Below are positions 40,622 through 61,700 of a stretch of 64,000 nt of DNA, piece after piece. The notes below the pieces were generated by a model. It had not been told where the DNA came from and did not search any database. It saw nothing but the letters and a program-made list of their open reading frames with translations. Each line of letters opens with the position of its first letter. Position 1 is the first letter of the stretch. The position numbers and the translations under genes were made by a program. The DNA lies in the NCBI GenBank assembly GCA_048213135.1, contig PS015213.1, positions 1 through 64,000 of the forward strand. The letters run 5' to 3'. This stretch comes from Reclinomonas americana ATCC 50394 (taxonomy: Eukaryota).

Positions 40622-42718
40622 ATGTACAGCGGGCAACGCAACGAACGGGGTGTGCCACACGGAGTGGGAACGTGCACGTGGCCAGACGGGAGGTTCAGTC
40701 GCGATTTTTGCTCACGTGCTCTGTCTCCGCGTCCCCTCACGACTCTTCTCTCTTTGTGTGTGTCTCTCTCTCTGTGTGTGTCTGCGTGTCACACCAGGCA
40801 GTACAGCGGCGACTTTTGCAACAACGTTGCGTCACCAATCACGCTTTTGCGAAACGTCCCATTCACTCACTCTCTCACTCATACTCATCTTCCTCTCTAT
40901 TCTCCCGCAGAAATGCCACGGTCGAGGGTGAGTGCCGCCCCACTTTTTCTTTGTCTTGTGTGCGCGATATACGCAGCAGCGGTATACACTGTAAGCGAGA
41001 GGCCATTGAGGAAGAGACGCTGTTTCTCTGCCTGTGTTATGTGGCACTCGTTCTCTCAGTCAACCGAATGCGCGACTGACGATTAGATTGATGACCTGTC
41101 ATCATCGTCTTCCGAGGGAGAGAGGTCCCTGTTTACTCACTCTCTGTCTGTATTCACAGGCGATTTGCAAGCAGCGATGGAGTGTACGAAGGCTCCTTTG
41201 TCGAGGATCGCATGGAGGGACAAGGGGTGTGTGTTCGATCATGACACTTGATTCCTTTCTTCCTCTCTGCCTTCCTCTCTTCACCCTCCTCCTGTGATCT
41301 GTCGGCCTTTCGCCGCCTTGTCGTCTTGTCGTCATCGGCGTTGCCTTTTTATGCGCACACTCATTTGGCGTGAATTGATGGGCGTTTTTCGCGCATGTGC
41401 ACCCCGTTTCAACCACCCTGTGAATGCCGCCACCTGTCACTTGATTGATTATTGCCAACCGACCACCACCTGCTCCTCCCACTCCCACTCCTCCACTCCT
41501 TCTCCTCCTTCTTCATCCCCTGTATTCCTCCTGTATCGGTCGGTTTATTGATCCTTATTTCTCGCTCTCTCTCTCTCTCCACGCAGACCAAGTGGTGGCA
41601 CGACGGAAGAAGGTCTGTCCGCCACTGCGTCATCCGTCGCTGCAGCTGGCGACGCAGTGTCTCACTGTGCGATGCGTGCGGCAGATATGTCGGCGAGTGG
41701 AAGAACAATCGGTGCCACGGGCAAGGTGTGCTCACGCTGGCCGACGGGGTGTCGGAGTACGACGGCGAGTTCGTGGAGGACACCATGGAGGGCGAGGGCA
41801 CAATGACGGTGCGTGGCAGGCATGAACAAGATGTATCTCTGTGTAGCATGTGCTCACCGACGAGTTGTGCAGTGGGCCGACGGTCGTGTGTATGTTGGCG
41901 AGTGGAAGGCCTCCAAAGCGCACGGATACGGTGTGTGTGTGTGAGCAGGCGCACGATTCCCTACCGTGCATCACCCTGCCGATATTGACCGACATGCAGG
42001 AAAAATGGAGTACCCGAATGGAGCGTGTTTTGAGGGCGAGTGGAACAGCGGGAAGCGCGTGTTTGGCTTGCTGCACTACCCGAACCAGACGCACTACCGC
42101 GGCGGCTTTGTCAACGACAAGGAGGAGGGCGACGCCGAAGTGAGGACGCCGGATCCGCGGGAGCCGAAGCGCACGCTGCGCTTCCGCTGCAAGTACGTGG
42201 CTGGCAGGGAGATTCTGCGGTTGCCACTGGCGCCCGGCGAGTCGGCGTTTGCGCCGACACCCGAGGGCGAGGTGGAGAGCGATGCGCGGAAGCGACTGCG
42301 GAAAACAGAAGAGGAGCGCATGCTGCGACTCGAGCTGGAGGCATTGCGTCACAAGGTCGACGAGTTGGCGGTGGAGCGCGACGAGGAAGCCAAGAAGGCC
42401 AAGGAGAAGGAGAAGGACAGCATGTTGCGTAGGCCGTGGCAAGTCGTGTCCTCAATATTATGAGTGTGTTTGACGCTGGAATTTTGCATGTGCGCGCACA
42501 GCTGTGTGGTGTGCCTGGCGGAGAGTCGGTGCATATGCTTTGTGCCGTGCGGACATGTCGTGTGCGTCACCGTGCCTTGTCGTGCGTTAATTCACCGCTT
42601 TCACTCACCGATTCTGTGGCGCCACAGGTGCTGCGAGGGCTGTGCACGACAGGTCACACCGTGCCCTATTTGCCGCACACCCATTCGCCAGCGTGTCAAG
42701 GTCTTCATCTCTGTATAA
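40622..42718 (+). CDS. MORN-repeat protein with coiled coil and C-terminal C3HC4 RING finger
   Basis: YVGEWKNNRCHGQG, YDGEFVEDTMEGEG, YVGEW, FEGEW; CVVC..FVPCGHV/CCEGC..CPICRTPI. Confidence 0.88.
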
Positions 42719-43184
42719 TTCCCCCTCTCCTTCTCCTTTGTTATATGNNNNNNNNNNNNNNNNNNNNNNNNNNNNNNNNNNNNNNNNNNNNNNNNNNNNN
42801 NNNNNNNNNNNNNNNNNNNNNNNNNNNNNNNNNNNNNNNNNNNNNNNNNNNNNNNNNNNNNNNNNNNNNNNNNNNNNNNNNNNNNNNNNNNNNNNNNNNN
42901 NNNNNNNNNNNNNNNNNNNNNNNNNNNNNNNNNNNNNNNNNNNNNNNNNNNNNNNNNNNNNNNNNNNNNNNNNNNNNNNNNNNNNNNNNNNNNNNNNNNN
43001 NNNNNNNNNNNNNNNNNNNNNNNNNNNNNNNNNNNNNNNNNNNNNNNNNNNNNNNNNNNNNNNNNNNNNNNNNNNNNNNNNNNNNNNNNNNNNNNNNNNN
43101 NNNNNNNNNNNNNNNNNNNNNNNNNNNNNNNNNNNNNNNNNNNNNNNNNNNNNNNNNNNNNNNNNNNNNNNNNNNNNNNNNNNN

Positions 43185-43414
43185 CGACCAACGAGCGTGA
43201 AATGTTGGAGGCTGCCGTGGCCAGATTGCAACAAAAGGCGGAGGCCATGAACCGGTGGTCGCCCAAGGATGCGCGCTACTGCACGTGTGCACAGCTGTCG
43301 ATTCGTCGCGTGTGGCAGAGCATGCGACAGCACGCCTCGCAGTTCAACTGGTACCGCCGGCTGTATGTGCTGTGCTCCTCGTTTGTCTTTGTTAATGTGT
43401 TGCGGAAAGCGTAG
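43185..43414 (+). CDS. PIGL: C-terminal fragment of PIG-L (on an apparently inverted contig)
   Basis: SMRQHASQFNWYRRLYVLCSSFVFVNVL-stop matches the PIG-L C-terminal AM..H.SQ..WFR.LY motif. Confidence 0.75.
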
Positions 43415-44566
43415 TAAAGAGTACACTTTCTGACTTTTTTCTTATCTCCACTGTACCCGACACACACACACACACGGTCGCTCTCGCGTCACGCGTGCAA
43501 CAAGACGGGCAAAACAAAGGAGAACATATGTACAGGATGGGTGAACAACACAACAATGGCGAAAGATCTAGAGCACGGCTGTACAAGAAAGACAAATTGA
43601 TTCTTCTAAGAGGGGGAGAAAACAGCGACAACAANNNNNNNNNNNNNNNNNNNNNNNNNNNNNNNNNNNNNNNNNNNNNNNNNNNNNNNNNNNNNNNNNN
43701 NNNNNNNNNNNNNNNNNNNNNNNNNNNNNNNNNNNNNNNNNNNNNNNNNNNNNNNNNNNNNNNNNNNNNNNNNNNNNNNNNNNNNNNNNNNNNNNNNNNN
43801 NNNNNNNNNNNNNNNNNNNNNNNNNNNNNNNNNNNNNNNNNNNNNNNNNNNNNNNNNNNNNNNNNNNNNNNNNNNNNNNNNNNNNNNNNNNNNNNNNNNN
43901 NNNNNNNNNNNNNNNNNNNNNNNNNNNNNNNNNNNNNNNNNNNNNNNNNNNNNNNNNNNNNNNNNNNNNNNNNNNNNNNNNNNNNNNNNNNNNNNNNNNN
44001 NNNNNNNNNNNNNNNNNNNNNNNNNNNNNNNNNNNNNNNNNNNNNNNNNNNNNNNNNNNNNNNNNNNNNNNNNNNNNNNNNNNNNNNNNNNNNNNNNNNN
44101 NNNNNNNNNNNNNNNNNNNNNNNNNNNNNNNNNNNNNNNNNNNNNNNNNNNNNNNNNNNNNNNNNNNNNNNNNNNNNNNNNNNNNNNNNNNNNNNNNNNN
44201 NNNNNNNNNNNNNNNNNNNNNNNNNNNNNNNNNNNNNNNNNNNNNNNNNNNNNNNNNNNNNNNNNNNNNNNNNNNNNNNNNNNNNNNNNNNNNNNNNNNN
44301 NNNNNNNNNNNNNNNNNNNNNNNNNNNNNNNNNNNNNNNNNNNNNNNNNNNNNNNNNNNNNNNNNNNNNNNNNNNNNNNNNNNNNNNNNNNNNNNNNNNN
44401 NNNNNNNNNNNNNNNNNNNNNNNNNNNNNNNNNNNNNNNNNNNNNNNNNNNNNNNNNNNNNNNNNNNNNNNNNNNNNNNNNNNNNNNNNNNNNNNNNNNN
44501 NNNNNNNNNNNNNNNNNNNNNNNNNNNNNNNNNNNNNNNNNNNNNNNNNNNNNNNNNNNNNNNNNN

Positions 44567-45618
44567 CTGCCTCGGTCCCCGATCCGGGAAGCGACACCAT
44601 CTCGTGCACCAGCTCCTCGTGCACACCGTCGCCACCACCACCACCAGCATTAGCAGCGGGTACGACCGCCTGACCTTTGCGATGATCCCTGCCGCTGTCG
44701 TCGCCGCCGTCACCGTCGGCGTCAACGTCATCGTCGCTCTTTTTGCGCGAGGCCGCCGCACGACGCCACGATCCACCGCGCACATACGTTCCACTGCCAA
44801 ACATGACAGCGGCCACACCGGAGCGCAGCAACTCGAAGAAGCCCGTGTACTTGCGCCACCATGAACCACTGTCGAGGAGCCACACTTGCGCCGGTCGCAG
44901 CTGACCGCGTCGAAACGCCGCCACCACTCCACGCGACACTGCAATGTGATTCGGGTGGCCGCTGACGCCACGCTCGTCAAACGTCACCACCCACTGGAAC
45001 GCCGACCCACGCGCATGCTCTGCCACCACATCCGCCTGCTCTCCTCCATTGCACAATGAGTGAAGAAGCAACAATGAAGTCTACTGCGCTCTCCCTCCCA
45101 CTGACCACGGTGTTCACGGGCCATATGGCACGCATCGAGTCTTGCAGCTCCTCGTGGCGCACAATGGTCACATCGTCGCGTTTGACACCGAGCACATGGC
45201 ATGCGCGATACAACTCCTCCTCGCGACGCTGTCCGAGGCCCTCGGCGTTGCCATTGGACAGGCACAAGACACTGAGTCGAGCGCCCACAGACTCCCGCAG
45301 AGTGGCGAGAGTGGGCGCAAAGAACATGGACTCGTCGTCCGGATGCGCAATCACCAGCAGTGCATGTGGTGACGACACTACGATGCACGCACATAGAGAG
45401 AGAGAGAGAGAATGAATGCACATGCACGCACATGCAAGTGACTGTGAGTGAGTTAGTTGCTCACCGTTTGCGCAGGCAGCTGAGAGAATGCGAGCTGCTC
45501 GTGAGCTCAGCACGCGACGCAGAAGGAACCCCAGTGCGGCGCACATGGCGAGCAGGCTGGCGAGGAGCACCGTCAGCACGAATGCCTTCAACAGTGCCTC
45601 TTCGTCCACGAGAAACAT
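44567..45618 (-). CDS. PIGL: GlcNAc-PI de-N-acetylase PIG-L, N-terminal part (runs into gap)
   Basis: N-terminal TM segment, LLVIAHPDDESMFFAP, LCLSNGNAEGLG..R..EL, LQDS, TFDERGVSGHPNH. Confidence 0.92.
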
Positions 45619-45713
45619 AATGAGCAACAAAAGTGCGTTTTTACTCGCGACGGACTGGACGTCGACAGGTGTTCCGCTGTCTGTCTGTCTGCGCGTGCGT
45701 GTGGAAAGCAGGC

Positions 45714-46917
45714 TCAGGCCACGGTGCACACGGAGAGCGTCGGGCACGAGGCCGACGCGGAGCAGTACGACGGAAGCGCAAAGATGCTGCCATTGATCGG
45801 GTCGGTCTTGTACCTGTGTTTGCAGAGGCCAGTGTCAGCTAGCAGCAGGGAGAGAAGGCGGAGGAACAAGAGACCGCCGTGTATGCGCAACGTCTGCGGG
45901 TTGAACTCAAAAAGGTCATTCGGCGCCATGTCGAGCCTGCATACAATGGTGCGACGTTCTTCAGCTGCAATTGCAGAGTATACCCTCGACCCTTTTGACC
46001 ACACGCAACTCCACCGGCACGTTCGAGTCCACGGTGGCATAGTAAAAGTTGTCTTGCAGACCCTGCACAGTCGACAATCAGCGCCTGCAAGGCCCCCCTG
46101 TTCCCTCACCATGTCTTGCGCAGACCTTCTGGTTCCACTTGTTGGTCATGTAGCCGCCAATCTGCTGCGTTCCGAGGTACTGTGCACCATGGAGCCAGTC
46201 GCGGCGAATGGTACCGCAGCCCTTGGCATCGTTGCAGCACGCGCAGCACGACTTGAGCTCGGGGAACACGAGATATCGCATGCCGGCGACCACCAGGTGC
46301 GTGCAATTCGTGTTGGTGAGCCTGCGTCGTCGCACAAGTGAGAGACGCACGGAGGAGTGAGTGTGAGAGAGAGAGAAAAAGGCAGAGCAGGCGCAACGGG
46401 TGAATGCTTCCGCAATCTGTGTTGTTGCTGCATCAGCTCACGTGAACCTCCAACAAACGCAAAGAAAGAGGAGAGGAGACGCAACAGCGGTCGTGGCGGC
46501 CATTGGCGCGGTCAATGCGCGTGTAGTTGTGCACCTAATGCCCACCAAAAAAAGAACTTGAGAAGACAGACAGCGAGACTCCGGGGGGGAGGCACACAAT
46601 GCACTCACCGCATCATACCACCACGTTCCTGTCGTCGTGTGACTGCCACCAATGATCTTGGTGGTCTCGCTAAAGTCTGCGGTGGGTGGAGGAGCCAAGT
46701 GAGAAACACGCACGCACGCACGCACACGCACACGGAGACACACTCGCTCACCAATCTGGAAAAACGCAGGCCACACAGGCGCGTCGGGGTCGCCCAAGGC
46801 CAGCGCATGCTCGAGCTCACCCGCAGCCGCCTGCTCCACCAGCAAAGTGCTGGTGAACACCAGTGCAAACACGCAGGCGAGCGCGAGGAAGAGAAGCGAG
46901 GTGCTCTGGCGCGACAT
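45714..46917 (-). CDS. Secreted Cys-rich protein of unknown function
   Basis: Signal peptide MSRQSTSLLFLALACV..; PVWPAFFQI/DFSE..TGTWWYDA; RYLVFPELKSCCACC..GCG..DWL; IFALPSYC. Possibly ependymin/LolA-like (inference). Confidence 0.7.
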
Positions 46918-55429: not shown

Positions 55430-56857
55430 TCACTCGGCGGCGTTCGAGGCGGTGAGCTTGCGCCACAGATGATCTCCACTGCGAATGGTCTCGTACTTGG
55501 CCGGGTGTTCGGCGTCGACGCACGATGGCAGACACGAGACCACCGTGTCGGGCGAGGGGCCGGTGAAGAAGACAATCGAGATGCGATCGGTGTCGCGTCC
55601 ACCGGGTTGCACCGGCGGCAGCGCCACCCGGTGCGTGTTGGAGACGAAGCGGTCGTTGGTCCACAGTTGAATCAGGTCGCCGGCGTTCACGGTGAAACTG
55701 CCACGCAGTGGCGGGCAGTCGATGAATTCTCCGTCGGGCATGCGCACTTGCAGGCCGCCCGGCGCGTCGTCTTGGCGCAGAATCGTGAACCCTTGCACGC
55801 ACATCCCCTCGGTGAGCACACGTGAAAACACAAATGCACTGCACGTGTACACACACCTTCGTAGTCTGTGTGCTCCCCGTACCGCAGTTGGCCAGGCAGC
55901 GCATCGGCCGGATCGATATGCGGGTAGTGTGCCAGACGCAACACGCAGCTCGGGTTCTCGGCAAAGAACGGCGCGAAAAAGTCGCGAGGCATGTCCAGTG
56001 TGCACGCCGTGAGCTCCATGAGCGAGTTCAGGAGGCGCGTCATGGCGGCCCAGTACTCTTCCACTGCGCACAGAGATCAGTGCGCGCACAGCAGAGTGGA
56101 TTTATGACTCAACAAAGCACGAACTGGTTTCTGCGTATCCCGCCGGTCTCTCGGGGATCACATCGGCGGGGCGATGATGGTACAGAATGTTCTCCACGAG
56201 ATCCGCCGGTCTCGGTGGCGTCGCAGTGGCCAGTCGCTGCCAACAATCAATTACTCAGTCATCATGTCATCGGTCACGAAACGGTGGCATTCATCGCACC
56301 GATCCATCTGGAGCCGTCTGCGTGGCACTCACACGCTCCACGCCCTGCGGAATGTACCCTCCGAAGCCATAGCTATTGCGCCACAGAGTCAGCAGAATGA
56401 AGGAGACGCAAGAGAAAGAGAGACTCACCCCTTGCCCAAGTTGTACCGCTGCTTCTCCTCCAGCGGCAGATCGAAAAAGTCGCGTGCAGCTCTGTACACG
56501 CGCTCCTGCAGCTCATCGCCCACCCCGTGTCCCACAATCGTGGCGAACCCGACTAGGGAGAGTCATGGATGAATGAGTGTGCATGCAAAACAAAGATGCG
56601 AGAATCGCATGATGGACGACGCACCAGTGGAGAATGCCGCATGCCAGGCAGCGATCACTCTCTACAAACTCGTCGTCAGCAGTCAGCACAGTACGTGCTC
56701 TTCACTCACTCACTCACTTGTTTTTCCTCAGCGCTTGCTGCATCATCGATGAATGCCGAAATGTCAATCACTGGAATGCTCTGTGTGGCACAGTCAACAA
56801 CTCAACACTTACAAACGCACACAGAGAAGCACGCACCCACTTCGCCTCGCTGCTCAT
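55430..56857 (-). CDS. 2OG-Fe(II) dioxygenase, IPNS/DIOX family, copy B (tandem paralog)
   Basis: Same motifs as copy A: IPVIDIS, LRLAHYP, YGEHTDY, NAGDLIQLWTND, HRV, RISIVFF. Confidence 0.92.
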
Positions 56858-56949
56858 CTCAATCCTGTCACGTTCATTGTCCTGTTTCCATCTTTCTGTC
56901 GAGACAACTCGACGTTTCTTTCGTTCACACTCCCGCATCGAGAGAGAAC

Positions 56950-58502
56950 ATGTCGGCATCAGCAGCTGCAGCCGCCACCTCGTCCTCCTCATGGACACCA
57001 GAGACCACGCTGCGCGAGGCTGGCGGTGAGACACTGCCTGATTACCTTCTCACCTCCTCACTGACCAATCGCGACTGCTGCAGAGCGCCCGCTGATCGAG
57101 CGCCTGCAACAGATCATTGGCGAATCTGCAGGCTGCGGAGGCATGTGGGGCTCGCCACTCGTGCCGGGACCCGACGATGTGGTGGGAATGCCGCTGGCGA
57201 TGCGTTCGACGACGACTGTCTCCGTCGGAGAATCAAGTGCGCCACTTGTCGGCTCGCCACCACCGCTGCCACCGGCTCCGCTCTTTGTCAACACCGACAT
57301 GCTGGTGTGGTCCACCGATGTGCCACCACTGCCTCGCGGCATGAGCTCTCGCCAGGCGGCGCGCAAGGCGATTGTCAGCGCCTGCAGTGATCTGATTGTC
57401 AAGGGCGTGCAGCCGCAGGCCTTGGTCACCTCGTTGGCGCTGCCGTCCACGATGATGGTGGCGGACTTTGACGAGGTCTGTCGGGGACTCGTCGACGGCT
57501 GCATCGAACTGGAGGTGTGCTACCTCGGTGGTGACATTAACGAGTGCGCCTCCGACAAGATCATCTCGGTGACCGCGTGGGGTCAGGCCGAGACGTACAT
57601 TCCGCGCCGCGGTGCACGCGTCGGCGATGTGATCTTCACCAGTGGCATGTACGGGCGGTGAGTGCGTGGCGGGCGGCGGCGAGATCCTCCTTTCTCACTC
57701 GTGCATGCAGCGAGAGCATCGGCTTGACCTTCATGCTGGACCGCGAACCGGACTTGGCAGTGGACGAGTTGCGCCTGCGATCGCCATTGCAGTAGAGAGG
57801 GAGGCAGATTGGGGAAGAGTGCTAACTCGAGGGGTGCATGTGTTCACAGGTCACTGGAGGAGTGCTGCGATGCCATTCGGAATCCGACGGTGGAGCGAGA
57901 CATTGGGCCAGCCATGGCGCGTCTCGGCGTCGCCTCGGCATCGTGTGACACCTCCGATGGCCTGTTGCGTACGCTGAACGACATGTGTGCGGCGGCAGCG
58001 TCGCATGGCGAGGCACCACTGTCGGCGGAGCTGCGTGCCTCGGCGATTCCAGTTGCGTGATCATGCCGATTCTGTTGCTTGAGCTCCTTTGTCTCTCTCT
58101 CTCACTCACCGACACCAACGTGGCAGATCCATCCGGCCGCTCGCAAAGTACGACACGATGATCCGCGTCGCCTGCTCATCGATGCGCTGCTTGGTGGCGA
58201 AGAGGTATCAACCAATCGAGTTGTCACGTCTCGTTCCGATTTTTGTTGTCGGGCCTCTTACCGCACCCTCCCAGTTCAATCAAGTGTTTGCCGTGCCGGC
58301 CGACCAAGTGCCACTAGTGCGCTCAACATTTGGCGATCGCCTCACGGAGATTGGCGTGTTCGTGGACGGCGAGAAGCACGACGGGCTGCTGATTGCCGAC
58401 GATGGCGAAGCAGTGTCACTCAAGCAATTCGGACTCGGCTTTGCGCACTTCACCGGCGCCGACGTGATCGACGAGGGCACTAAAGCATATACTCAAACTT
58501 GA
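56950..58502 (+). CDS. thiL: Thiamine-monophosphate kinase (ThiL, PurM-like family), 6 exons
   Basis: G/ERPLIE, DD, NTDMLVWSTDVP, SDLIVKGVQP, LGGD, RRGARVGDVIFTSG, DTSDGL, GGEE/F, IG, GFAHF. Five GT-AG introns restore one frame. Confidence 0.85.
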
Positions 58503-58749
58503 AGAGACCCAGCGCCTNNNNNNNNNNNNNNNNNNNNNNNNNNNNNNNNNNNNNNNNNNNNNNNNNNNNNNNNNNNNNNNNNNNNNNNNNNNNNNNNNNN
58601 NNNNNNNNNNNNNNNNNNNNNNNNNNNNNNNNNNNNNNNNNNNNNNNNNNNNNNNNNNNNNNNNNNNNNNNNNNNNNNNNNNNNNNNNNNNNNNNNNNNN
58701 NNNNNNNNNNNNNNNNNNNNNNNNNNNNNNNNNNNNNNNNNNNNNNNNA

Positions 58750-61700
58750 CCCTGTACGAGTCCGCCGCCGATGCCCACCAGGACTACACTCAGCGACACA
58801 ATCGACCGCCCAGCAGCATGCTGCTGTGCCTCGTGGCGCTCGGTCGACAGCAGCTGGCAGAGGCCGAAGAGTTGCGTCCCCTCTCTCTCCCTCCCCCCTC
58901 CCTCCTTCTGCCTCACATGCACACAGTGACCCGTTCGGTGACTCGCATGCTCTGCGCATTTCACTGCCTCCCTTGCGCCAATCTGCACGCCGAGGCTCCA
59001 CGTCTGCGCGTGGCAGTGGTGCTGGTGGTGGCAGCGGTGCGGCTGACGAACACGAAGGTCGCACAAAGTCTGCAACAGCCGGCTTCAAGTACGTGTTGTC
59101 GGATCCAGCGCNNNNNNNNNNNNNNNNNNNNNNNNNNNNNNNNNNNNNNNNNNNNNNNNNNNNNNNNNNNNNNNNNNNNNNNNNNNNNNNNNNNNNNNNN
59201 NNNNNNNNNNNNNNNNNNNNNNNNNNNNNNNNNNNNNNNNNNNNNNNNNNNNNNNNNNNNNNNNNNNNNNNNNNNNNNNNNNNNNNNNNNNNNNNNNNNN
59301 NNNNNNNNNNNNNNNNNNNNNNNNNNNNNNNNNNNNNNNNNNNNNNNNNNNNNNNNNNNNNNNNNNNNNNNNNNNNNNNNNNNNNNNNNNNNNNNNNNNN
59401 NNNNNNNNNNNNNNNNNNNNNNNNNNNNNNNNNNNNNNNNNNNNNNNNNNNNNNNNNNNNNNNNNNNNNNNNNNNNNNNNNNNNNNNNNNNNNNNNNNNN
59501 NNNNNNNNNNNNNNNNNNNNNNNNNNNNNNNNNNNNNNNNNNNNNNNNNNNNNNNNNNNNNNNNNNNNNNNNNNNNNNNNNAGGTCGCGAAACGGAGAAG
59601 CCAGAATGGAATACATTCTGCGTGGGGGCGAGGGTGGGAGAGCTGTTCTTTGAGCAGTTGTGGCGCACACGATAACACACCTCAATGGTTCGCACATCGG
59701 CGACGAAATATAGGCGGCAGGATCGAGTGTCCTCGCCGAGACTTGCCACTTTGGCGAAGAAACGATCACGAATGTCGCCCGAGGAGAATGAACACTGCAG
59801 CACTGGTAAGAAAAATACTTCGGGGGAAAGGCTTCCGACCACACTGCTGCAACACCTTTTGCACGTCGAGCACACTGACAGCCGGTGCATCGGACGGAGC
59901 CGCGGGATCAAAGCTGGCGCTCACGGCCACGGCGGCCATGGATGCGGTAAACTCGCGCACCGCGTCCTCCTGCTCCTTGCGCGCTCCACTGCAGGCGTGC
60001 CGAAAGAAGAGACACAGCACGTAGGCTCATTAGTTTTATTCCCTTGAGCCACTCTCAGGCGAGGCCGAGAAAGACTCACCTTGAGGAGGAAGACGAGGAG
60101 GAGGAGGCAGTGGTTGGATCGTCGGTTCTCTTCCTGTCGCGCGCAAGCGCGGATGAACGCGATGAGCTGCCGGACTTGGCGTCGGGCACCGCCGCGCCTG
60201 TTTGTACCACGGGCGCGGCCTTGCGAGCTGGGCTGCCGACCACCGGCGGTCGCGCCACGCGCTTGCTGGCATCGGCCGGTGAGCTAGCCTGCTTGCGATC
60301 GCCGGGCGAATCCACCTTGGCCGCCGACGCCTTCAGTGGACTGCCGTCGGCGCTGCTCACCGACGAGCGCCGACGCAGGGCGGACTCGGGTGGAGGCGTA
60401 CTGTTGCTGTGCGAGAGCGACTTGGGCGACACCGGTGCCGACAGTGACGACGCTGGAGGTGCGCCTTCGCTTCCCAGTGGTGTCAGCAGGGGAACCACCA
60501 GTGGCGTCGGCACGCCCATGACGAGCGACGAAGTCCACGCGGCGGGTTTGACTGCAGCGGCGGCCTCCACGCGACCGGCTGTGTAACACAACAATACCCG
60601 TGAGTGAAGGCGTGACGGGCAGAGGTGGAGAACAGTCGACGCAACTGCGGCGAATCTCGTCGAGCTGCGTGCGGAGCAGCACATTGTCTCGCATCAGATG
60701 CTCGACTTGCATGTCGCTGTCGACCACCTGTATGCATGCATGCAGTGAGTATCCTCGCCTTTTTGCCTTGCCAACACCCTCACTCACCCGCTTGCGCAGA
60801 TACATGATTTCGGCGCGCATGCGCTCCATCATGAACAACTGTTGTGCGTACGCATCCACTTGCTTGTCGCGCCTGTCAACCCGTCGGTGAGTGCCAACAA
60901 CACCCATTGGCAAATCTTCGACAGCCGTCATGGCACACGCACCATGCCTTCATGTCGCTCCACTCATCGTTGAGCGCCATGTAATCAAACGCCTGTGCCC
61001 CGGGTGGCAGACGAGACTGCGAGTCGGGATACGCAGTGTTCCCCATCTTGCACATGAGCAAGCTGCCGTCCCACTCGTTGCTCACACCCGCGAAGCTGCG
61101 TCGCGCAGCGAGTGAGACAGACAGACAGACACACAAAGCGAATGGCAATGGAGTGGGGAGGTGCGCACGCACCGATGATTGAGAATGGGATCATCGTTGA
61201 AGCCGTTGCGGCGCCAAAAGTTGAGAGAGGTGACATCGGCGTACGTCATGGCCACATCGAAGCTGCCGACGACTTTCGGATCGGTGGCAATCTACCGCAA
61301 CTCGCTCCGCGTCAGTCATCGCACCGACGCACACACACATACACACCGATCTGCAGACACACACGCTCACCGAGAGCAAATGGCTTCCGAGGCGAGCATA
61401 CTGGTACTTGAGCCGCACACCGACAAGCGTGATTTGCAACACGCGTAACCTCGTGGTGAAGTGCGTCGGCCACTCCCACGACACCGCGCCCACAATGCGA
61501 TGCGTCGCAGTCTGCACACCGCAAGCCCACAATGAGCCAGCGTCAAAGGCACACACACTCATCAAGATCAACGAACCACAGCCTCCTGCGCCGTGAACTT
61601 GAGCGTTCCCTTGTCTTCCTTGTCAATCACATCTGTGCCGCACGCATAAGCATCACCGCCGCACCGCGAGCGAGAAACAAACACCGCACCATCTTCCTCC

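Follow-up and report, generated by a model that had tools for sequence, protein, structure and literature searches.

How does a gene for ThiL, an enzyme of prokaryotic thiamine metabolism, come to lie interrupted by spliceosomal introns in a eukaryotic genome? The question is raised by a gene at positions 56950-58502 (forward strand) of the first 64,000 nucleotides of contig PS015213.1 from the protist Reclinomonas americana ATCC 50394; this whole stretch of 64,000 nucleotides is called the window below. ThiL carries out the final step in the synthesis of thiamine diphosphate (ThDP) in bacteria and archaea. Eukaryotes normally bypass it, so that thiamine monophosphate (ThMP) is converted to thiamine, and thiamine to ThDP by thiamine pyrophosphokinase (TPK). 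To our knowledge, eukaryotes do not use ThiL, and the enzyme has been treated as prokaryote-only. In the text available from earlier papers, the bacterial pathway ends with ThiL, and the same final position is proposed for it in Haloferax (PMC3020362, PMC4215014); the enzyme has also been called an attractive antimicrobial target because humans do not have it (PMC6416309). In the literature that we searched, partly available as excerpts, we found no report of a eukaryotic ThiL gene that is nuclear and contains introns, although papers outside that library may describe one. Here, we show that the gene adds a eukaryotic representative to an enzyme family already known, and ask where it came from.

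We listed the stop-to-stop frames of positions 56500-59000, and the exon boundaries were located and spliced by script. The coding sequence consists of six exons and five introns (Table 1), and its start codon is the first ATG beyond a gap of approximately 100 bp to a divergent upstream gene. The introns are 53-82 nt in length, every one of them follows the pattern GT..CAG, and a CTNAC-like branch motif is found near the 3' end of all five. When they are removed, a single open frame of 1215 nt (405 aa) is obtained. The first-pass annotation had described a complete ThiL motif set interrupted by five introns at this locus; its coordinates and intron count proved to be exact, and the motifs that it quoted are present.

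Exon 2 scored 57.3 bits against the N-terminal AIR-synthase-related domain of Pfam (PF00586; cut-off, 24). Among the NCBIfam models, it scored 83.2 bits against the thiL model TIGR01379, compared with 21.5 bits for PurL, 19.9 for HypE, 19.5 for PurM and at most 14.1 for SelD, and exon 4 matched thiL models exclusively (25.6 and 20.3 bits). The two TIGR01379 scores (83.2 and 20.3 bits) come from separate exon pieces, whereas the cut-off of 184.15 bits applies to whole proteins. As a proxy for the whole-protein score, the spliced protein was scored on a hidden Markov model (HMM) built from 28 Asgard ThiL sequences, where it reached 293.3 bits. The TIGR01379 cut-off itself was exceeded by all six close relatives tested (189.9-238.7 bits). 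A PDB search with exon 2 matched seven distinct sequences, of which six were ThiL and one was HypE.

The spliced protein aligns end to end with archaeal ThiL proteins (314-346 aa), from the N-terminal G-E to the C-terminal G-F/W-x-H-F motif, and the alignment is unbroken at every exon junction. In an alignment of 88 sequences and 341 columns, 37 columns show at least 90% conservation across the 87 relatives, and at none of them does the protist protein depart from the consensus. It differs from these relatives by a Pro-rich loop insertion of approximately 25 aa, by two additional residues following TDVPP and by a short tail at the C-terminus. The loop that bears the insertion also varies among the archaeal relatives, and in one of them (P0040) the insertion there is longer. 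A protein search for longer forms (348-2000 aa) found nothing, and a look-up in the ESM Atlas gave just generic AIRS clusters with bacterial labels (scores of 0.90-0.91), which was uninformative. The thiL model and PDB matches, together with the relatives that pass TIGR01379, support the assignment of the gene to the ThiL family, and not to SelD, PurM or HypE.

We considered whether such a gene in a eukaryotic assembly could be an artefact, whether through contamination by prokaryotic DNA, chimeric assembly or decay to a pseudogene, and a run of Ns does begin 15 bases after the stop codon. However, the five introns carry host-type signals and restore the frame, which is open once spliced, and all of the highly conserved columns are retained. 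The gene is also contiguous with the intron-bearing eukaryotic gene upstream. Its GC content at third codon positions (GC3) is 0.716 (overall GC, 0.63), and that of seven host exon pieces is 0.60-0.81. Other domains encoded in the window include WD40, La, Ras, Armadillo, phosphoglucomutase, guanylate kinase, PIG-L and CAP-Gly. Given the spliceosomal introns, the eukaryotic neighbour, the eukaryotic domains on the same scaffold and the host-like GC3, contamination, which the first-pass annotation had dismissed, or chimeric assembly is very unlikely, and we give next to no weight to an artefact of any of the three kinds.

To which ThiL proteins, then, is the gene related? A word-based search with exon 2 returned 18 matches, 15 of which, at 49-51% identity, were named as thiamine-phosphate kinase of an archaeon or were nameless; their kin in species-representative genomes amounted to 26 loci, almost all of them in metagenome-assembled genomes (MAGs) of Bathyarchaeia. 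An exhaustive phmmer search of 1.84 billion representative proteins gave 1685 matches at E<=1e-3, of which 130 reached E<=1e-10 but none E<=1e-30. The top match scored 104.9 bits at 51% identity, with nothing closer among these representatives, and the window's own protein is absent from the library. No eukaryotic relative was seen among the best 150 of the 1685 matches, in a library that carries no taxonomy and whose coverage of eukaryotes is unstated; thus the broad inheritance of ThiL in eukaryotes, which the first-pass annotation had raised as an alternative, was not seen. The close matches that are labelled or that could be placed in a tree are archaeal. Names were obtained for 20 representatives and include Sigynarchaeota, Sigynarchaeum springense, Lokiarchaeota, Lokiarchaeia, Promethearchaeota and Heimdallarchaeaceae, and the others are nameless or bear a function name only. 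Among sampled genomes, exon 2 was matched in 274 of 301 from the Asgard phylum (36-48% identity among the 150 matches listed), and the thiL model was matched in all 61 Thermoproteota, in 43 of them above the cut-off. The best match in any single genome was found in a Bathyarchaeota MAG (G002; 98.2 bits, 52% identity).

With the full spliced protein, two proteins stood out, P0019 (191 bits) and P0022 (186 bits), and all others scored 150 bits or less. Over approximately 325 columns, identity was 40.7% to P0022 and 39.1% to P0019. It was 36.2% to one ThiL of Bathyarchaeia and 33.3% to L172, and fell to 26.9% for a Heimdall protein and 24.5% for the bacterial-like P0018. A metagenome scan with the alignment of the nearest clade gave 80 loci, none of which scored above 136 bits to the protist protein, and the contigs of P0019 and P0022 were not recovered. 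When P0019 was compared with 151 genomes of the Asgard class to which genome G242 belongs, its best match showed just 44% identity (genome G396), so that its own lineage is unsampled there. The first-pass annotation had judged the motifs to be archaeal rather than bacterial in type, and this judgement holds well: exon 2 is approximately 50% identical to archaeal ThiL, whereas the best bacterial ThiL in the PDB scored 36 bits and identity to P0018 is as low as given above. An archaeal rather than bacterial ancestry is secure.

We then built the phylogeny including Asgard sequences that had been proposed for this gene. An overview tree was calculated with FastTree from 199 rows, comprising the window's protein, 85 proteins from loci and 113 representatives with lengths of 285-420 aa; duplicate loci (L027-L031 and L083) and representatives outside this length range were left out. 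In this tree, the window's protein fell in a clade of 33 rows (support, 98) together with 18 loci from the Asgard sample and 14 representatives, and its sister was P0019. A more careful tree was based on the 88 x 341 alignment, the rows of which were hand-picked after the overview tree to cover every clade, with the addition of five closer Asgard loci and two metagenome loci. It was inferred by maximum likelihood (ML) in IQ-TREE under LG+C20+F+G4 with posterior mean site frequencies (PMSF), with 1000 ultrafast bootstraps and SH-aLRT. The protist protein grouped with P0022, P0019 and L172 at 99/87, and L172 comes from genome G396, which belongs to the same Asgard class as G242. The successive enclosing clades contained 10 rows (100/91), 12 rows (100/94), 27 rows (100/97) and 29 rows (99/94). 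Apart from the protist protein, the 29-row clade consists of 20 Asgard-labelled and eight unlabelled rows and is Loki-type, so that in the ML tree the gene lies among Asgard sequences of Loki type. The sequences labelled Heimdall form a clade of their own outside it (100/100), and so do those of Bathyarchaeia.

The exon-intron structure, the family, the retained conserved positions, the archaeal affinity and the eukaryotic surroundings are read from the sequence itself. Taken together, the sequences point to an intact and functional archaeal-type ThiL that resides in the nucleus of an intron-dense protist and was acquired by transfer from an archaeon, and we regard this as likely. Given transfer, an Asgard donor is somewhat the better bet, and a Loki-type Asgard donor is best supported by the tree, a placement that is favoured but neither proven nor statistically exclusive.

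Several observations weigh against these conclusions. The C-terminal AIR-synthase-related domain (PF02769) was undetected on exons 3, 4 and 5-6, which were scanned as separate short pieces and so give no negative result for the whole protein; the C-terminal half aligns with relatives that bear PF02769, and it retains DxSDG, GEE and G..H. The two nearest proteins, P0019 and P0022, are metagenome proteins without a taxon label, and the margin of their identities over those of Bathyarchaeia and L172 is small. MAG labels are themselves not fully reliable, given that Bathyarchaeia-type ThiL occurs in MAGs labelled as bacteria or Thorarchaeota. The protist protein sits at the end of a long branch (1.62; median, 0.63). 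In quick LG+G4 analyses of each half of the protein, the C-terminal half alone recovered the four-row group (SH-aLRT, 95), but the N-terminal half alone was unresolved, with no supported set that includes the protist protein; therefore, the Asgard signal lies mainly in the C-terminal half. Finally, approximately unbiased (AU) tests were conducted on three groupings, all named after the tree had been seen. A clade of the 28 Asgard rows without the protist protein was not rejected (log-likelihood difference, 37.7; p = 0.135), nor was a grouping of the protein with a clade of 16 Bathyarchaeia and Thermoproteota rows (31.6; p = 0.131), and its grouping with seven Heimdall rows was borderline (39.4; p = 0.050).

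The second of these tests bears on the possibility that the donor was a non-Asgard archaeon, such as a member of the Bathyarchaeia, and that the Asgard placement is an artefact of the long branch and the two unlabelled neighbours. Consistent with this, the first word-based search gave Bathyarchaeia-type ThiL, the best single-genome match was the Bathyarchaeota MAG, and the full-length identity to the ThiL of Bathyarchaeia is higher than that to several members of the Asgard clade (30-35%); the result with the N-terminal half can be read in the same way. However, the free ML tree was better than the Bathyarchaeia grouping by the 31.6 log-likelihood units given above, and the nesting among Asgard sequences, with supports ranging from 99/87 to 100/97, came from a mixture model meant to withstand long-branch attraction. 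The C-terminal half supports the Asgard placement independently, and the full-length scores of P0019 and P0022 are approximately 40-50 bits above that of any Bathyarchaeia sequence. Thus, we consider a non-Asgard donor unlikely.

The Heimdall test bears on a different possibility, namely that ThiL was inherited vertically from the Asgard-derived host of eukaryogenesis, was present in the last common ancestor of eukaryotes (LECA), and was lost nearly everywhere except in this lineage. The nearest labelled relatives are indeed Asgard archaea, and the long branch and full domestication (five introns and host-like GC3) would fit a great age. Placement outside the 28-row Loki-type clade is also left unrejected by the AU test. 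However, eukaryotes branch with the Heimdall group in most recent studies, and in the ML tree the gene lies within one Asgard class, below four successive supported nodes and apart from the Heimdall clade. Many independent losses would be required, and no other eukaryotic relative appeared among the best phmmer matches. In the available text of a survey of haptophyte transcriptomes and genomes, moreover, THIL was not found, whereas TPK was found in representatives of all six orders (PMC5635689). The first-pass annotation had left a choice between horizontal acquisition and rare retention. Because the gene is nested in one crown Asgard class and not beside Heimdall, because no other eukaryotic relative was seen, and because retention needs very many losses, we favour late transfer and consider a vertical relic quite improbable; the borderline p-value for the Heimdall grouping keeps the choice from being fully settled.

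According to the transfer scenario that we prefer, an archaeal donor, by the best tree a Loki-type Asgard archaeon, would have passed thiL to the protist lineage. The gene would then have been domesticated, gaining five host-type introns, a host-like GC3 and the loop insertion, and would have evolved along a long branch. The encoded enzyme, with a PurM/AIR-synthase fold, would convert ATP and ThMP to ADP and ThDP. According to the available text of the structural work on ThiL from Aquifex and Acinetobacter, the dimer interface houses the active site, in which conserved acidic residues hold several Mg2+ ions (PMC6416309). On the basis of this work on bacterial ThiL, the family membership and the fully conserved motif set, we infer that the protist protein would act as a ThMP kinase with an active site of the same kind. 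The gene is presumably also expressed.

A ThiL-derived enzyme with a changed job, that is, one that acts on another substrate or in regulation instead of in ThDP synthesis, was also considered. TPK is normally present in eukaryotes and would make ThiL redundant; the long branch, the loop insertion and the C-terminal tail of 17 aa would likewise fit this reading. However, the 37 retained columns include the acidic motifs, the thiL model scores far above the paralogue models, and the insertion lies in a loop that is also variable in archaeal relatives. A changed job is therefore highly doubtful in our view.

The features of the locus are collected in Table 1.

Table 1. Positions of the ThiL exons, introns and motifs and of adjoining features in the window
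Feature	Position	Strand	Remarks
2OG-Fe(II) oxygenase-like gene	55430..56850 (limits approximate)	-	intron-bearing (GTGAGT donor); PF03171, 61.3 bits
Exon 1	56950..57025	+	ATG; short Ala/Ser-rich N-terminus; ends at first base of the E codon of the G-E motif
Intron 1	57026..57083	+	58 nt; GTGAGA...CAG; CTGAC branch-like motif; junction restores frame and G-E-R motif
Exon 2	57084..57657	+	PurM-type N-domain; PDDVV, NTDMLVWSTDVPP, SDLIVKG, GGDINE; contains the Pro-rich loop insertion (~25 aa)
NTDMLVWSTDVPP motif	57290-57328	+	
SDLIVKG motif	57386-57406	+	
GGDINE motif	57527-57544	+	
Intron 2	57658..57710	+	53 nt; GTGAGT...CAG
Exon 3	57711..57767 (model A) or to 57791 (model B)	+	model B, +8 aa, GTAGAG donor
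Intron 3	57768..57849	+	82 nt; GTTGCG...CAG; CTAAC branch motif; alternative 57792-57849, 58 nt
Exon 4	57850..58051	+	start of C-domain; D-T-S-D-G-L motif
DTSDGL motif	57947-57964	+	
Intron 4	58052..58126	+	75 nt; GTTGCG...CAG
Exon 5	58127..58204	+	ends in conserved G-G-E-E
GGEE motif	58193-58204	+	
Intron 5	58205..58274	+	70 nt; GTATCA...CAG
Exon 6	58275..58502	+	C-terminal part; G-F-A-H-F; tail of ~17 aa; TGA at 58500-58502
GFAHF motif	58437-58451	+	
Assembly gap (N run)	58518..58748	.	hides 3' UTR and downstream neighbour

Two of the introns had been assigned the donor GTTGCG in the first-pass annotation, and the two cases differ in strength. The donor at 58052 is fixed by homology, in that a conserved I-P-I spans the junction and read-through meets a TGA after three codons. 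For intron 3, GTTGCG at 57768 competes with an in-frame GTAGAG donor 24 nt downstream, use of which would yield a product of 413 aa. On the HMM of Asgard ThiL, the GTAGAG form scored 286.5 bits, compared with the 293.3 bits of the GTTGCG form, so that GTTGCG is preferred, although only slightly. Isoforms made with the two donors would differ by LRLRSPLQ in the interdomain linker, and the pair could represent alternative splicing or a plain cryptic site. GTTGCG occurs 92 times in the window (expected, 69.7 +/- 8.9; three of 100 shuffles reach 92), and because this enrichment is modest, the hexamer proves little by itself. A third GTTGCG at this locus lies within exon 4 (57964-57969), in codons for the G-L-L-R of the conserved DTSDGLLRT, and is evidently unused as a donor; hence, the hexamer alone is insufficient for donor recognition in this genome. 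We also considered a hidden intron within the Pro-rich insertion but rejected it, given that no GT..AG pair of plausible length is present there and that the loop is variable in relatives.

The divergent gene upstream resembles 2OG-Fe(II) oxygenases. Only approximately 100 bp separate its 5' end from the start codon of ThiL, so one very short bidirectional promoter region probably serves both genes. No TPP riboswitch was detected in positions 56000-58518, where the sole Rfam match was a sub-threshold small nucleolar RNA (E = 0.27). GC content is 0.34-0.43 in 42001-46000 and 58001-60000 and 0.51-0.61 elsewhere in the window. At 58518-58748 and beyond 59100, the low values are due to N runs, that is, assembly gaps, and frames of equal length on all six strands suggest the same for 42001-46000.

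Two further observations concern the relatives. Some are of double length (P0039, 699 aa; P0071, 664 aa; P0075, 692 aa; P0090, 616 aa; L175, an open frame of 712 aa); one of these is labelled Lokiarchaeota and one comes from an Asgard genome. The ThiL domains take up roughly the first 320-335 residues, and in the four proteins scanned the remaining 300-370 residues gave no Pfam match at E<=1e-3, which looks like an uncharacterised C-terminal fusion partner. In addition, the ThiL sequences of four MAGs labelled Patescibacteria, Krumholzibacteriaceae, Desulfaltia and Thorarchaeota (L003, L004, L010 and L020) nest in the Bathyarchaeia clade, and some of them are nearly identical to Bathyarchaeia copies (L010 to L012, and L020 to L026). 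Mis-binning of contigs, rather than transfer, probably accounts for these genes.

If the nuclear ThiL is functional, it would represent a eukaryote that makes ThDP by the prokaryotic one-step route, and ThDP could come directly from the ThMP of ingested prey, for instance. If the donor was an Asgard archaeon, the gene would record a rare case in which a present-day protist received a metabolic gene from the archaea most closely related to eukaryotes, it would imply ecological contact between the two, and it would caution that Asgard-like genes of eukaryotes are not automatically ancestral. If the gene were instead a vertical relic, the protist would offer a view of how cofactors were made in LECA.

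Finally, we compared the protist gene with known systems. TPK1/THI80, the usual eukaryotic enzyme, has an unrelated fold and transfers pyrophosphate from ATP to free thiamine, not phosphate to ThMP; what the two have in common is ThDP as the final product of cofactor formation. A ThiL gene inside a eukaryotic cell is also present in the chromatophore of Paulinella (YP_002049069.1). Its record type marks that gene as organelle-encoded, and it is presumably of cyanobacterial origin and without introns, unlike the nuclear, interrupted and archaeal-type gene of this protist. The same record served as the THIL query of the haptophyte survey, as seen in its supplementary Table S1a (PMC5635689). The bacterial ThiL structures (PDB 5cc8/5dd7, 1vqv, 3c9r-3c9u and 2yxz) belong to the same family and, by inference, catalyze the same reaction; however, exon 2 scores only 27-36 bits against them, and they have an 'eg-hF'-like motif where the protist and archaeal ThiL proteins have S/T-T-D-x-P. 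The ThiL of Bathyarchaeia (P0001-P0015 and L001-L026) is approximately 50% identical in exon 2, aligns end to end and passes TIGR01379 (P0003, 238.7 bits; G002, 235.1 bits), but it forms a separate clade in both trees and does not have the PP-plus residues after TDVP. Closest in the tree are the Asgard ThiL proteins, which are TIGR01379 equivalogs, for example P0019, P0022, L172, P0040 (MHA1820112.1, Promethearchaeota), P0100 (HMF34576.1, Lokiarchaeia) and P0025 (MDO8085739.1, Sigynarchaeum springense). They share with the protist protein the two-domain PurM-type layout, the length class (330-350 aa in archaeal ThiL) and the motifs G-E, DD, TDMLVxxTDxPP, SDLxVKG, GGDxNE, DSSDG-type, GGEE and G-x-x-H-F. 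Even P0019 and P0022, however, are only 39-41% identical to it, and the protist gene differs from the Asgard genes in its five spliceosomal introns, its Pro-rich insertion, its extra residues after TDVPP, its C-terminal tail and its nuclear location.

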